The notes beneath the pieces were generated by a model. That model was given only the letters and a program-made list of their open reading frames with translations, was not told the origin of the DNA and did no database searches. The position numbers were made by a program, and so were the translations under genes. 10,956 nucleotides of DNA. Source: a virus. This document shows, piece by piece, positions 2,130 through 10,202 of this stretch; within the stretch, counting starts at the first letter, position 1, and every line of letters begins with the position of its first letter. The stretch lies in UHGV virus genome UHGV-0334393; one strand, 5' to 3'.

Positions 2130-2339
2130 ATGCGTGAAATAAATGAAGATCGCGTAATCCGTGAGGATGAATGTCGTAAGTTAACTGGAGTGTGCCGCAC
2201 TACACGTTACGAACTGGAGAAAAAAGGGCGCTTTCCGTCACGTCTTAATCTGGGCGGTCGTTCTGTAGGGTGGCTGCTGTCCGAGGTTATGGAATGGGTT
2301 AAAAGCAGGGATCGTATTAATTCAGGTAAGGCAGCGTAG
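2130..2339 (+). CDS. alpA: AlpA-family (phage/prophage regulatory protein) DNA-binding transcriptional regulator
   Basis: The segment RKLTGVCRTTRYELEKKGRFPSRLNLGGRSVGWLLSEVMEWV matches the AlpA/Phage_AlpA helix-turn-helix core (LGGRSVGW...E...W). The tracked ORF starts at a GTG at 2043 that overlaps its own Shine-Dalgarno; the in-frame ATG at 2130 gives a typical ~69-aa AlpA size. Start is uncertain. Confidence 0.7.
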   Translation: MREINEDRVIREDECRKLTGVCRTTRYELEKKGRFPSRLNLGGRSVGWLLSEVMEWVKSRDRINSGKAA

Positions 2340-2351
2340 GGGGAACATATG

Positions 2352-2385
2352 ACACATAAAACAAAGGCGACCTGGGGCGGTCGCC
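2352..2385 (-). terminator. Rho-independent terminator for the minus-strand unit (stem GGCGACC / GGTCGCC, loop of 6, then a U-rich tract on the minus strand)
   Basis: On the minus strand the hairpin at 2366..2385 is followed by TTTGTTTTAT. On the plus strand it is not followed by a T-run. It sits between the convergent alpA-like and RHH-like genes. Confidence 0.5.
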
Positions 2386-2449
2386 AATGGGAAAACACTA
2401 AACATAAGCCCGAACATCATAGCGATTTGCTGGCTGGTGGGCAATGCAA

Positions 2450-2623
2450 TCAGTCTGGTTCAGTTCGTTGCCATACCTGCAATGAGCGCGTTTCCCTGTA
2501 CTCTTTAAGGAATTGCTCAAGGGCAAAAGCACATGGCGCGAATCGTTCTGATTCATGCTCTTTCTTTCTGCGTCGTCTTTTTCGTGCAGGTGATGTTTTT
2601 TCGGTTGATTCTTCGTTGGTCAT
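2450..2623 (-). CDS. Small, highly basic hypothetical protein (57 aa) downstream of the RHH-like gene; below the ORF-track length cutoff
   Basis: Manual translation of the minus strand gives MTNEESTEKTSPARKRRRRKKEHESERFAPCAFALEQFLKEYRETRSLQVWQRTEPD. It lies between the RHH-like gene and the minus-strand terminator. Ribosome-binding site is weak; coding status is uncertain. Confidence 0.25.
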   Translation of the reverse strand: MTNEESTEKTSPARKRRRRKKEHESERFAPCAFALEQFLKEYRETRSLQVWQRTEPD

Positions 2624-2680
2624 TGTGTGCGCCTGTAAAGCAATGCGCCGTAGTACCTCACACCACGGCGCTGATAGTGA

Positions 2681-2878
2681 TTATTCTGATTCTTTGGCCT
2701 TCCGGCGCTGTTCATATTTTAATTTGCGTCCACAGGCATCTAAGACCCATGCGGAAAAATTAGCACTAGGATTAGTTAATTTTTCTTGTTCAACGCTGGC
2801 ATCAATCCCATCTATAAGCTCATGTGGGAATCGAATATTTTTCTTTGCTGATTTGTTGTTTGTGTTACCGCTAGACAT
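2681..2878 (-). CDS. Ribbon-helix-helix (CopG/Arc/MetJ-like) DNA-binding protein; candidate repressor
   Basis: 65 aa. The pattern KNIRFPHELIDGIDASVEQ...NPSANFSAWVLDACG fits a beta-strand, helix, turn, helix RHH layout. GAGGTG Shine-Dalgarno about 6 nt upstream of the ATG on the minus strand. Its upstream region carries palindromic operators. Confidence 0.6.
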   Translation of the reverse strand: MSSGNTNNKSAKKNIRFPHELIDGIDASVEQEKLTNPSANFSAWVLDACGRKLKYEQRRKAKESE

Positions 2879-2907
2879 TGATGCACCTCACTTAAATGGA
2901 CTTTATG

Positions 2908-2986
2908 GGCGCACACAATACAGCAAAAAAAATGAGATGTTAAGTATTGACATGTGCGCACACATGATTTTAATCTGTGCGCACAG
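2908..2986. promoter_or_regulatory. Divergent promoter/operator region: perfect 10-bp palindrome TGTGCGCACA twice (2953..2962, 2976..2985) flanking a -10-like TTTAAT, with TTGACA at 2947..2952; related half-sites GGGCGCACACAAT (2908..2920) and ATTGTGTGCGCC (2621..2632)
   Basis: Palindromes and hexamers read directly from the sequence. TTGACA, a 16-bp spacer and TTTAAT point rightward toward the 3077.. operon; the operators overlap the spacer and the +1 region. Confidence 0.55.
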
Positions 2987-3076
2987 TTTGAGTTTTGTCA
3001 TTCAAATTAAGCAACGCCCCGCAGTGCTCGCAACACATGCAGGGCGTCTAACCAACAACGTAAACTAGGAGCCGTT

Positions 3077-3274
3077 ATGGTTGCCGTAAATCATATACCA
3101 CACCTTGTACACACACAAACGGCCTTTGTGTGGCGTTTTCTGGCCCTGAGTGCCGGAGAATCTCAAATCATCCACGTAACCGCCTGGACGGAACGCGAAG
3201 CGCGTAGCCGTTGCCCGTCCGGTTGTGTTGCTGTATTCGCCGCCCGTATTCGTCAGGGGGTGAGTCATGCATAA
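3077..3274 (+). CDS. Hypothetical protein (65 aa), first gene of the operon that ends in the primase
   Basis: AGGAG Shine-Dalgarno 5 nt upstream of the ATG; overlaps the next ORF by 8 nt (ATGCATAA). No recognisable homology. Confidence 0.55.
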   Translation: MVAVNHIPHLVHTQTAFVWRFLALSAGESQIIHVTAWTEREARSRCPSGCVAVFAARIRQGVSHA

Positions 3275-3499: not shown

Positions 3500-3799
3500 A
3501 TGAAACTTAAATATTCTGGCTTAACTGCCAGTGGCAACACTCACCCTAAATTTACGCGCGGTGATATTTACCGCGACCAGTACGGCGGCACGGTAATGAT
3601 TAAGGGCGTGGCGGGACGGTGCGTAACTTACCGCCGTGAAGGTTACGAATATGATTGCGTGATGCCTGTTTATCAGTTCCGGCGTGATTTTTCTCTGGTA
3701 CAGACCGCGCCGCATAACGTGCCCACCAGCAACGCCAGAGCACGGGCAAACATCCAGAAGCTGAAAACAATGATTAACGGATTCAGGGGTAAAAAATGA
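3500..3799 (+). CDS. Hypothetical protein (99 aa)
   Basis: GGAGA Shine-Dalgarno 9 nt upstream; its stop overlaps the primase start (ATGA). No recognisable homology. Confidence 0.6.
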   Translation: MKLKYSGLTASGNTHPKFTRGDIYRDQYGGTVMIKGVAGRCVTYRREGYEYDCVMPVYQFRRDFSLVQTAPHNVPTSNARARANIQKLKTMINGFRGKK

Positions 3800-5928
3800 A
3801 ACTGGCACCGAACGTAAAACAGCAGTCACGCGGCATAAAACACAAAGAAACAGAAGTCATTATTTTTGCGGGTAGTGATGCCTGGTCACACGCAAAACAA
3901 TGGCAGGAACATGACGCGCGTATGGCCGGAGATAATGAGCCTCCTGTGTGGCTTGGGGAGCAGCAGTTATCCGAACTGGATAAGCTGCAAATTGTGCCGG
4001 AAGGCAGAAAATCAGTACGCATATTCAGGGCCGGACATCTTGAGCCAGTAATGATCAAGGCGATTGGTCAGAAACTGGCGGCGGCAGGCGTACAGGATGC
4101 AAATTTTTACCCTGAGGGAATGCACGTTCAGAAGGTGGAGAACTGGCGCGAATATCTGGCCCGTGAGCGGCAGAATCTTTCTGATGGTCTGGTTATTGAG
4201 CTTCCGGTAAAGAAAAAAGATACCGGAAGTCATAGCGATGACGAATTAAAGCCACGCGTTGAAAGTCGCGCCGATGGTGTTTTCTGGGTAACGCCCAAAG
4301 TGGATAAGCAGTCAGGCGAAATTATCCGGCCTGAGACGTGGTTATGTTCTCCGCTTGAACTACTGGGAACGGGGACGATCGGTAAAGAGCATTACCGCGT
4401 GATGCGCTGGAAAAAAACCGCAAACCATGAAGTCATCACAATGGCGATCCCGTGTGGTGGTATCGGCGACCGTGACGGCTGGCGGTTACTTAAAGATCAC
4501 GGGCTGAACGTGACAACCAACGGCAAATACAGGGCAATCCTGGCGGACTGGATGCAGTTAAGCGGAAGCCATGAGGAATGGCAGTTAAGCACAACAACGG
4601 GCTGGCATTTTGGCGCGTACATCATGCCGGACGGTTCGATCATTGGTGATTCTGAAAAACCGATCCTGTTTACCGGAAAAAGCGCCGCGATTAACGGTTA
4701 TTCCGTGGCGGGTACGGCGGAGGGCTGGCGCGAGAGTGTGGCGCGGCTGGCTGGCGGTAATGCCTCAATGATGCTGGGTGTGGCAACGTCACTGGCAGCG
4801 CCTTTAATTGGCCTTGTGGGTGCTGACGGCTTCGGGGTGCATCTTTTCGAACAGTCATCGGCAGGTAAGACCACCACGCAGAACATCGCATCAAGTTTAT
4901 GGGGAGAGCCGGACGCGCAGCGGCTGACCTGGTACGGCACGGCGTTAGGTATTGCCAATGAGGCCGAGGCCCATAATGACGGGCTTTTACCACTGGATGA
5001 GATAGGCCAGGCCGGAAATGCGCGGGAAGTGTCAACGTCTGCTTATACGCTGTTTAACGGTTCAGGGAAATTGCAGGGGGCGAAGGATGGCGGCAACAGG
5101 GAGATCAAACACTGGCGAACGGTGGCAATCAGCACCGGAGAAATGGACGTTGAGACATTCCTCAAAAGTGAGGGGATAAAAGTTAAGGCGGGGCAGCTTG
5201 TCCGACTGCTTAACGTTCCGATGGAAAAAGCCACGAAATTTCACGAATACAGCAACGGTAAGGAACATGCTGACGCGTTAAAGGATGCCTGGACAGCAAA
5301 TCACGGGGCGGCGGGTCGTGAGTGGGTTAAATGGCTGGCAGGCCACCAGCAGGAGGCAAAGGACACGGTAAGGGAATGCCGCGAACGGTGGCGCAACCTG
5401 ATACCGGAGAGTTACGGCGAGCAGGTCCACCGCGTGGGTGAACGTTTCGCCATACTGGAGGCCGCGCTTGTGCTTTCCGGTCATGTAACTGGCTGGGTCG
5501 TGCAGGAATGCCGCGACGCGATACAGCATAACTTTAATGCCTGGGTGAAGGAGTTCGGCACGGGTAACAGGGAATTTAAACAGATGGTTGAACAGGCTGA
5601 GGCGTTTTTGTCGTCGTTTGGGTTTAGCCGCTACCTTCCGTACCCCAATACAGATGAGCGTGATTTACCGATTAAAGAGCTTGCCGGATACAGAAAAGGG
5701 AGCATTCGCAACGAAGATGACGAGATGCGCTATTACACGTTCCCGCACGTGTTTGAGAGTGAGATAGCGAAGGGATTTAATCCGGCGCATTTTGCGCGTG
5801 CCCTGGATGCTGCCGGAATGCTGGAGAAGGGAAGCGATCGCCGATACAAAAAAAAGGCGCTGGGCAAGATTGGGGGTAAGCAGCATGTTTTTTACGTGCT
5901 GATGTTCCAGCCTGATGATGAAGATTAA
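3796..5928 (+). CDS. Replication initiator, primase/helicase type (DUF927/D5-like; SF3-like ATPase domain)
   Basis: 710 aa. Walker A SSAGKTT and Walker B LLPLDEIG motifs in the central region. N-terminal region is consistent with a toprim/primase-like domain. An iteron origin lies immediately downstream, as in PICI pri-rep modules. Confidence 0.9.
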   Translation: MKLAPNVKQQSRGIKHKETEVIIFAGSDAWSHAKQWQEHDARMAGDNEPPVWLGEQQLSELDKLQIVPEGRKSVRIFRAGHLEPVMIKAIGQKLAAAGVQDANFYPEGMHVQKVENWREYLARERQNLSDGLVIELPVKKKDTGSHSDDELKPRVESRADGVFWVTPKVDKQSGEIIRPETWLCSPLELLGTGTIGKEHYRVMRWKKTANHEVITMAIPCGGIGDRDGWRLLKDHGLNVTTNGKYRAILADWMQLSGSHEEWQLSTTTGWHFGAYIMPDGSIIGDSEKPILFTGKSAAINGYSVAGTAEGWRESVARLAGGNASMMLGVATSLAAPLIGLVGADGFGVHLFEQSSAGKTTTQNIASSLWGEPDAQRLTWYGTALGIANEAEAHNDGLLPLDEIGQAGNAREVSTSAYTLFNGSGKLQGAKDGGNREIKHWRTVAISTGEMDVETFLKSEGIKVKAGQLVRLLNVPMEKATKFHEYSNGKEHADALKDAWTANHGAAGREWVKWLAGHQQEAKDTVRECRERWRNLIPESYGEQVHRVGERFAILEAALVLSGHVTGWVVQECRDAIQHNFNAWVKEFGTGNREFKQMVEQAEAFLSSFGFSRYLPYPNTDERDLPIKELAGYRKGSIRNEDDEMRYYTFPHVFESEIAKGFNPAHFARALDAAGMLEKGSDRRYKKKALGKIGGKQHVFYVLMFQPDDED

Positions 5929-7196: not shown

Positions 7197-7403
7197 ATGG
7201 CAGAAGAGAAAAAAGGTGGTGTTTCGGTGTACATAAGCCCCGAAATCGTGGAGGTGCTCAAGCAGCGCCACAAAAAAAACTATGAGGCTGGCGTAGCGGC
7301 TGGACTGGATCCGCTGATGACGCCGGAGCCGTCGATAGGTTCACTTGTGCGCTCTTATTTACTTGCGGCGCTTGGGATGCATAAAAATTATGGGGGTGAA
7401 TAA
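7197..7403 (+). CDS. Hypothetical protein (68 aa), first gene of the capsid operon
   Basis: AGAGGA Shine-Dalgarno; stop overlaps the downstream start (TAATG). No recognisable homology. Confidence 0.6.
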   Translation: MAEEKKGGVSVYISPEIVEVLKQRHKKNYEAGVAAGLDPLMTPEPSIGSLVRSYLLAALGMHKNYGGE

Positions 7404-10006: not shown

Positions 10007-10202
10007 GAGAAAGGATCTGATAATGGCATTTTCTGGCTAAAATGCCTCGTGTCAGATCCTTTCTTTTTTTAATATTTTCATTGTTAAACAGTCTGTTACA
10101 GAGAAGAAGAACGGATCTGACTTTTGCCGGAAAATTTTCATAAACAGATAAAAACCGCGAGGTCGCCGCCCCGTAACGGGCCATAATTCCAGGAAGGACC
10201 CG
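10007..10202 (-). other. cos site 2 (minus orientation): cosQ-like (10172..10202), cosN (complement of 10160..10171), and a canonical lambdoid cosB with three R-site-like repeats (AGAAAGGATCTGA 10008..10020, TCAGATCCTTTCT 10052..10064, AGAACGGATCTGA 10108..10120) and an AT-rich IHF-like segment
   Basis: The reverse complement reads GGGCGGCGACCTCGCGGTTTTTATCTGTTTATGAAAATTTTCCGG...CCGTTCTTCTTC..., near-collinear with the recalled lambda left end through cosB. The middle repeat is inverted relative to the outer two. Confidence 0.8.

Follow-up and report, generated by a model that had tools for sequence, protein, structure and literature searches.

A probable immunity switch with a YlcI/YnfO-type candidate repressor, encoded antisense to a long open frame, in an EcCICFT073-type phage satellite

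Phage-inducible chromosomal islands (PICIs) of Gram-negative bacteria have been described as AlpA-activated and without a known repressor; whether such a repressor exists was left unclear, and why they should differ in this from the islands of Gram-positive bacteria 'is a mystery' (PMC6092414). The window analyzed here, the whole 10,956-nucleotide (nt) stretch of the viral genome UHGV-0334393, is a phage satellite of this kind, an EcCICFT073-type Gram-negative PICI. Between its alpA gene and its replication operon it contains a small leftward gene, ylcI, whose 65-amino-acid (aa) product belongs to the YlcI/YnfO family, together with divergent promoters, palindromic sites and a long reading frame that crosses them on the opposite strand. 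This region is, in our judgement, probably the immunity switch of the island, and the YlcI/YnfO protein a probable Arc/Mnt-type ribbon-helix-helix (RHH) repressor. A preliminary description drawn from the letters alone had proposed a dedicated RHH-like repressor of the replication operon with a four-copy TGTGCGC operator set, possibly looping, and had noted a likeness to an antitoxin-toxin layout.

The ylcI-type gene (2681..2878, minus strand) is preceded by a leftward promoter, P_L (2915..2943, minus strand), which was found by a promoter scan and consists of the -35 hexamer TTAACA (2943..2938), a 17-bp spacer and the -10 hexamer TATTGT (2920..2915). Back to back with it, the two -35 hexamers lying 3 bp apart (2943 and 2947), stands the promoter of the icd-like/replication operon, P_R (2947..2976, plus strand), with TTGACA (2947-2952), an 18-bp spacer and TAATCT (2971-2976); it was read by eye, as the scan overlooked it because its -10 fits at only three of six positions. 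Two perfect palindromes of the sequence TGTGCGCACA occupy P_R: O1 (2953..2962) begins one base past the -35 and fills the spacer, and O2 (2976..2985) begins at the last base of the -10 and covers the start region. A further site, O3 (2906..2915; TGGGCGCACA), abuts the -10 of P_L and is a full 10-bp site with one mismatch. The centres of O1 and O2 are 23 bp apart, and O3 lies 47 bp from O1 and 23+47 bp from O2. The heptamer TGTGCGC has nine strand-matches in the window, where 2.3 +/- 1.6 are expected, and six of these fall within 2626-2985.

The anatomy given in the preliminary description was thus largely recovered, including the leftward promoter, the 65-aa and 57-aa open reading frames (ORFs), the minus-strand terminator and the two perfect palindromes on the rightward promoter, at 2953-2962 and 2976-2985. 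Its two 'half-sites' have to be revised: the one at 2908..2920 is the full third site at 2906-2915, and the other, a heptamer copy at 2626-2632, exists and is lineage-specific. The leftward unit, ylcI followed by the 57-aa orf57, ends in an intrinsic terminator (2356..2385, minus strand) with a stem from 2385 to 2366 of seven pairs, six of them G-C, followed by TTTGTTTTAT. A second, terminator-like hairpin (2645..2671, minus strand; 12-pair stem, weak T tail), absent from the preliminary description, directly follows the ylcI stop, between ylcI and orf57, and is also found behind other ylcI alleles, in CFT073 and at locus L133. On the plus strand, the terminator scan gave nothing between alpA and the switch except the O1 palindrome itself.

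About 140 loci with relatives of the module were available from genomes, metagenomes and viral contigs, and anchoring on the invariant -35 of P_R yielded 74 distinct switch regions, across which the layout O2 - O1 - TTGAC ... TAnnGT - O3 is constant. The hosts of this three-site layout comprise Escherichia, Klebsiella, Serratia, Rahnella, Pectobacterium, Erwinia, Proteus, Xenorhabdus and Pasteurella. Among 64 well-anchored regions, TTGACN is present in all, TAnnnT stands 18 bp downstream in 55, and a TAnnnT hexamer abuts O3 in 49; in this set the constant GGT arm of the operator provides the last three bases of each -10. The related operators are 14-bp GGTG-N6-CACC elements with constant arms and with cores that fall into discrete classes. 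At Rahnella, Klebsiella and Erwinia loci the spacing of the window is found with three perfect palindromes, and the O3 position is likewise a perfect palindrome in five loci (L004, L005, L006, L013, L032). In loci of 5-8 kb, operator-like 10-mers lie nearly all at -20 to -130, with a handful of one-mismatch matches elsewhere and none downstream of ylcI in the other loci; a palindrome search of the window gave no operator-like site upstream of alpA. The position of O3 on the -10 of the candidate repressor gene's own promoter suggests autoregulation. Two IMG/VR contigs carry variants of the window allele: in L089 a 23-bp tandem duplication adds a fourth perfect operator at P_R, and in L093 O2 is lost and IRFPHG replaces IRFPHE.

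The 65-aa product was identified by profile search, with matches above the curated cut-offs to NCBIfam NF041551 (YlcI_YnfO_N; 59 bits, cut-off 30) and Pfam PF13132 (DUF3950; 28.3 bits, cut-off 25), and to PHROG 949 (E=1.4e-27). The Prokaryotic Genome Annotation Pipeline (PGAP) assigns the YlcI/YnfO name to the identical gene in the closest E. coli genome (L001) and in other genomes. The family is small (of 1.84 billion sequences, 125 representatives fall at E <= 1e-3), and full-text literature searches returned gene lists and no published function for it. An AlphaFold2 model of the monomer (predicted local distance difference test 77) shows residues 1-18 extended, followed by helices at 19-33 and 41-63; the strand of an RHH protein forms only in the dimer. 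With hhalign, residues 9-27 (KSAKKNIRFPHELIDGIDA) are placed on residues 6-24 of Arc (KMPQFNLRWPREVLDLVRK), so that NIRFPHELID stands opposite NLRWPREVLD. K12, N14 and R16 then fall on Q9, N11 and R13, through which Arc makes its base contacts in the operator; K12 and N14 are variable in the family and R16 is invariant. These features make an RHH fold probable. Distant members of the family, scanned against Pfam, gave DUF3950 only, besides two weak sub-threshold Recombinase matches, and no named RHH family.

That ylcI is a real gene is supported by the way in which it varies. Codon-position counts cannot separate the two strands here, since the third positions of ylcI and orf57 coincide with those of the long plus-strand frame, and the severity of replacements was used instead. 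Replacements are conservative in the ylcI frame (mean BLOSUM62 +0.12) and radical in the antisense frame (-1.04), which argues for protein-level selection on the ylcI strand, and the gene is intact in all 78 distinct sequences. The 65-aa product, with its matches to the family models, is supported as a real, conserved protein of predicted DNA-binding type.

An argument for its role is the co-variation of protein and operator. The residues that lead up to the invariant IRFP (11-14) follow the class of the operator core: KKN is found with TGTGCGCACA, YKG with GGTGTTTAAACACC, KKH with GTGTGCACCCAC, KKA with GTGTGCGACCAC, TKK with GGTGCGGCCACAC, QKK with GGTGYACCCCCAC, A-TKG with GGTGTTAGGGCAC, T-TKG with GGTGCACAAACAC, LKN with GTGTGTAGACAC and RVG with GTGTGTAGCCAC; the operator of the TKG type is also written GGTGTTAGTACACC, and a further type, LKARVP in EcCICFT073, has the core GGTGTGGCCCAC. 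As per-column mutual information is inflated by shared ancestry, partial Mantel tests were used instead. Operator distance correlates with distance over the first 14 residues (r=0.60, p <= 2e-4) and not with that over residue 15 to the end (r=0.00, p=0.48), p-values that are optimistic because related sequences are not independent; the contrast within one protein serves as an internal control for shared ancestry. The Icd-like protein, taken as a control, gave a non-significant partial r=0.085, and AlpA a weak residual correlation (partial r=0.13); after controlling for either of them, r for the N-terminal arm was still about 0.56-0.58. Loci L045 and L058 have near-identical protein bodies, differing in the last few C-terminal residues, yet their arms (MSSGNTNNKSAKKN vs MATRAINNKSATKG) and operators differ, and to judge by these sequences the pair is a natural domain swap. 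The best reading is that specificity would be carried by the N-terminal arm or strand, residues about 3-14, and that at least ten protein/operator specificities exist, comparable to phage immunity groups. The earlier proposal of a dedicated repressor of the replication operon therefore holds as the best reading, owing to N-terminal co-variation with palindromes that lie on the -35 and -10 of P_R; the number of conserved operators has to be corrected to three.

The fourth copy of the heptamer (2626-2632) does not belong to this set. It is part of a 19-nt arm (2622..2640) that overlaps the start codon of orf57 and forms an inverted repeat with the O3 region (2622-2640 / 2901-2919; 17 of 19 positions complementary). 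The sequence is missing from eight of nine variants of the ylcI-orf57 spacer and was not counted as an operator, since one variant only has it; looping across ylcI, as had been suggested, consequently finds no comparative support. The neighbouring orf57 (2450..2623, minus strand; PHROG 21027, function unknown) is a probable small gene, restricted to its lineage. Its 31 homologues, all from E. coli or Shigella and down to 56% identity, keep the frame and share an invariant ERFAPCAFALE core. In CFT073 it is annotated as WP_000130015.1, and its replacements are milder than those of the antisense frame (mean BLOSUM62 -0.42 vs -1.53). Taken together, the preserved frame, the annotation and the milder replacements indicate that orf57 is probably a real gene. 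It had been called highly basic, which applies to the stretch RKRRRRKK and not to the whole protein, whose net charge by residue count is about +3; the AlphaFold2 model has a disordered basic tail and a single helix at residues 24-54. No Pfam, NCBIfam or PADLOC model and no toxin family matched. Of 111 loci, each of which has ylcI and the operators, 28 contain orf57; these belong without exception to the E. coli lineage and include at least three distinct ylcI alleles.

The plus strand of the switch is covered by a bridging ORF of 239 aa (2349..3068), taken from the ORF list and called eta-like here, which has no family match in Pfam, NCBIfam or PADLOC. It begins 10 nt past the alpA stop, behind a GGGG Shine-Dalgarno sequence, runs antisense through orf57, ylcI and the whole switch, and ends at a TAG inside the Shine-Dalgarno region of the icd-like gene, 8 nt before its ATG. 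In the window, this end is compatible with coupling by termination and re-initiation, with no in-frame fusion. In EcCICFT073, a single frame of 428 aa extends from a Bro-N-like start after alpA, antisense via orf57 and ylcI, through operators and leader into the Icd-like gene. The antisense frame is open in 70 of 78 distinct ylcI genes, compared with 41.8 +/- 3.9 under synonymous resampling, and interrupted in eight. Across the whole intergenic switch it is open in 53 of 64 distinct sequences, where a base shuffle gives 1.3 and column permutation 7.0 +/- 2.4; for the other two frames the counts of open sequences are 0 and 1. These two frames are closed because stop triplets lie inside TTGACA, TAAnnT and TGTTAA, and the open frame is not so explained. 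Clustering at 85% identity leaves 39 clusters, of which 33 have the frame open and 28 a length that brings it into phase with the Icd-like ATG. The peptide itself alters radically wherever ylcI or the RNA hairpin of the leader changes, and what selection preserves on the plus strand seems to be no more than an open frame. Judged by these patterns both strands are functional, in different ways.

In the public annotations of Pasteurella phage Pmp7 (L144, OR544138; 4435-5109) and of vB_KppS-Ant (L145, LR881103; 3634-4608), the long antisense frame is called and ylcI omitted; its Icd-like end has given the frame of Pmp7 the label 'transcriptional repressor'. For the closest E. coli genome (L001, 9350-9686), the plus-strand entry made by PGAP is a truncated 'hypothetical protein' marked as pseudo. 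In some islands the Icd-like gene or domain is present in two to four tandem copies, and at L133 (1945-3531) a 528-aa frame, antisense through orf57 and a 101-aa ylcI allele, holds two Icd-like segments.

The rightward transcript begins with a 5' leader (2984-3076), the structured part of which (3014..3076, plus strand) is made up of a hairpin (3014-3047), a conserved single-stranded segment CUAACCAACAACG and a hairpin that includes the Shine-Dalgarno sequence (3057-3076). In 19 leaders 87% of cells are paired, a figure that drops to 34-46% once the partners are slid; compensatory double changes occur at nine pairs, and none of 500 shuffles reaches the observed score. This count was made on a hand-specified structure, as RNAalifold on the MAFFT alignment overlooked the main hairpin, whose 3' arm was out of register. 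The row of the window is gapped in the alignment at the small Shine-Dalgarno hairpin, which in the window therefore rests on the sequence and a single-sequence fold. The single-stranded motif has the form CUAACCA(C)AAC, and in the minimum-free-energy fold it also pairs with the region of the icd-like AUG. The leader matched no Rfam family in a whole-window search (E <= 1), and no second or complementary copy of its motifs occurs in the window. An RNA of the P1 C4 / P4 CI type was also considered and rejected, with no C4 or isrK match at E <= 1 across the window.

Among known systems, the closest functional analogue is immI of phage P22 with Mnt and Arc, the closest in architecture is the immunity region of P4, and the closest in role is Stl of the Staphylococcus aureus pathogenicity islands (SaPIs). 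With immI (Mnt/Arc, Pmnt/Pant), the window shares a small gene, here for a candidate repressor, transcribed divergently from the promoter to be blocked, and operator sequence that overlaps both promoters; over its strand motif, N-[IL]-R-[FW]-P-x-E, the protein can be aligned with Arc. It differs in lacking a significant sequence-family match to Arc or Mnt, in having three separate palindromes instead of one operator, in that the operon to be controlled is one of satellite replication and packaging and not an antirepressor, and in that the candidate repressor gene is nested antisense in another frame. In P4, as summarised in PMC10111431, kil is the end of a longer frame, eta, whose start precedes an internal constitutive promoter and which is coupled with the alpA homologue, and translation of eta is said there to prevent termination of transcripts from the upstream promoter. 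The likeness to this region (PLL-vis-eta, nested kil, PLE, CI RNA) lies in the alpA/vis homologue upstream, in a coupled long frame that starts upstream of the internal promoter, and in the Kil/Icd-like gene of roughly 65 aa in which the long frame of relatives ends. Unlike in P4, where immunity is due to CI RNA pairing with seqA/seqC, the gene of a candidate protein repressor and its predicted operators are found at that place in the window, and the long frame stops 8 nt short of the icd-like ATG and is not fused. Stl and Rpr, master repressors of Gram-positive PICIs, resemble the module in divergence of the repressor gene from the satellite replication operon and in allelic diversity; the window protein is of unrelated type and size, and relief by a helper protein is demonstrated for Stl.

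From these comparisons, we infer DNA binding, repression, autoregulation and a route of induction as follows. The YlcI-type repressor, made from P_L, would bind as dimers to three palindromic operators of 10-14 bp and the form GGTG-N6-CACC, here with the core TGTGCGCACA. Occupancy of O1 and O2 would block P_R and keep the icd-like gene, DUF4222, the primase-helicase and the packaging genes off, and occupancy of O3 would give negative autoregulation of P_L, presumably weaker in the window because of the mismatch. The many specificities would act as satellite immunity groups. Helper phages switch on alpA, and AlpA overexpression induces EcCICFT073 (PMC6092414). By analogy with P4, translated read-through from the alpA promoter could then cross ylcI in antisense, interfere with P_L, lower the synthesis of repressor and bring RNA polymerase to the replication genes independently of P_R; this induction route is drawn from P4 and the published facts on alpA. 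A more general proposal, in which we place somewhat less than even confidence, is that DUF3950 proteins are the master or immunity repressors of Gram-negative and capsid-forming PICIs, lie antisense in a translated eta-like frame, are silenced through convergent transcription, and have their operators bypassed, by AlpA-driven read-through under the protection of ribosomes, constitute a protein replacement of the RNA immunity of P4, and have ten or more interchangeable specificities, each marking an immunity group of satellites.

Besides the optimistic Mantel p-values, several observations weigh against the repressor reading. The protein matches no Pfam RHH model, and a sequence search of the PDB with the family profile gave nothing at E <= 10. 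O3 is imperfect throughout the E. coli KKN lineage, in which the mismatch is conserved. In the window, the eta-like frame is out of phase with icd. AlpA overexpression alone is sufficient to induce EcCICFT073 (PMC6092414), so that repression is either bypassed or not absolute.

The last point would also suit a protein that binds these operators mainly in order to exclude incoming satellites of the same type, or to tune or activate P_R, silencing of the resident island not being its main role. Many discrete specificities on otherwise mosaic backbones do recall immunity groups. The distribution of the KKN cassette fits such a role: of 5426 complete E. coli genomes, 69 have it at >= 95% identity and 1464 match the flanking sequence. 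An operator inside a suboptimal 18-bp spacer would fit tuning or activation. We nevertheless regard this as rather unlikely: O2 on the -10 and start, and O1 abutting the -35, form the classic geometry of repression, unlike known RHH activation, and immunity and maintenance are not mutually exclusive. That the palindromes are bound by another factor, be it AlpA, the Icd-like product or a protein of the host or the helper, with ylcI a bystander, draws on the PHROGs label 'transcriptional repressor' for two Icd-like families, on AlpA being a DNA-binding regulator of PICIs, and on the weak correlation retained by AlpA distance. It is quite improbable all the same, as the operator core follows the N-arm of YlcI when Icd-like protein or AlpA is controlled for (partial r 0.56-0.60), no host factor could keep pace with ten or more types of operator in one and the same host species, and AlpA acts on its own promoter, where no palindrome exists.

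Very little likelihood is left for a type II toxin-antitoxin module or other two-gene cargo with the 65-aa protein as antitoxin and the 57-aa one as basic toxin, the layout to which the preliminary description had pointed. The two genes are not inherited together (28/111 loci, with at least three ylcI alleles), orf57 gave only PHROG 21027 and no toxin, Pfam or PADLOC match, its model has a single helix, and two of the three operators lie on the divergent promoter and not on that of the module. Least credible of all, to the point of being scarcely tenable, is that the long plus-strand ORF alone is a true gene, with the ORFs of the minus strand as its shadows. The plus frame is indeed open far more often than chance would have it and is the one picked in Pmp7 and vB_KppS-Ant; yet ylcI is intact in 78 of 78 sequences and the plus frame interrupted in eight, replacements are conservative on the minus strand and radical on the plus strand, the plus peptide shifts radically with the compensatory changes of the hairpin, and YlcI/YnfO proteins exist outside the satellite context, for example in lambda. 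The co-variation with the operators would moreover be left without explanation. Both frames being selected, ylcI is kept as a protein-coding gene nested antisense in the 239-aa frame.

The literature searched contained no paper that gives a function for YlcI/YnfO or describes a repressor of Gram-negative PICIs. As the prototype EcCICFT073 itself carries the ylcI/operator module as in the window, a concrete candidate repressor with predicted operators is available for this open question, and a family of the y-ome, so far a domain of unknown function, gains a predicted function that can be tested. The natural protein/operator pairs are suited to specificity swaps and as orthogonal repressor parts, and the locus presents a fully overlapping antisense pair in which selection appears to act on the protein of one frame and, in the other, on openness alone. 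The module was presumably overlooked because its small genes were missing from the original annotation, those of CFT073 bearing late-added locus tags, and because gene callers prefer the long antisense frame.

The assignment of the window to this type of island rests on its collinearity with EcCICFT073 (NC_004431, 1377930-1388654), the prototype Gram-negative PICI, and on the order integrase, alpA, primase-type replication gene and packaging or capsid-redirecting genes, which is found in the ORFs of the window and their Pfam matches. The integrase gene lies at 482-1720. alpA (2130..2339, plus strand; Pfam Phage_AlpA, E=2.2e-16) encodes a product of the activator/excisionase type and stands upstream of the switch, co-oriented with the replication operon. 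That operon is opened by the icd-like (P4 kil-like) gene (3077..3274, plus strand; NCBIfam phage_ICD_like, 64.7 bits), the first rightward gene in nearly all related loci, and includes the DUF927 primase-helicase (3796-5928); further products of the window are DUF4222, a single-stranded DNA-binding protein, a capsid and decoration pair, and a small-terminase-like protein. A copy of the switch at 97.5% identity was met between cspD and clpS in another E. coli genome.

Relatives of YlcI are also known from lambdoid phages. YlcI of DLP12 and YnfO of Qin in K-12 and the homologue at the right end of lambda belong to the same family and have the IRFP...NFSAWV motifs in common, but unlike the gene of the window they adjoin cos and terminase genes and no satellite switch. 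Upstream of the lambdoid genes nothing like the three operators can be made out, apart from a possible remnant of the junction between O1 and the -35, ..CCACGTCAA. In lambda and its relatives (L146, lambda-like phage ev243, 201-395), the homologue has 43% identity, lies about 200 bp from the right cohesive end and is usually unannotated; K-12 ylcI and ynfO are copies in that context.

Two further observations were made elsewhere in the window. The small-terminase-like gene is followed downstream by a long inverted repeat rich in AT (10029-10134), which could be a terminator or a packaging-related site and gave two spurious Rfam matches (XIST intron, mir-1284). Just upstream of the capsid gene lies an ORF of 68 aa (7197-7403; PHROG 3255, function unknown), the opening of which (VSVYISPEIVEVLKQRHKK) resembles by eye the strand-helix start of an RHH protein.

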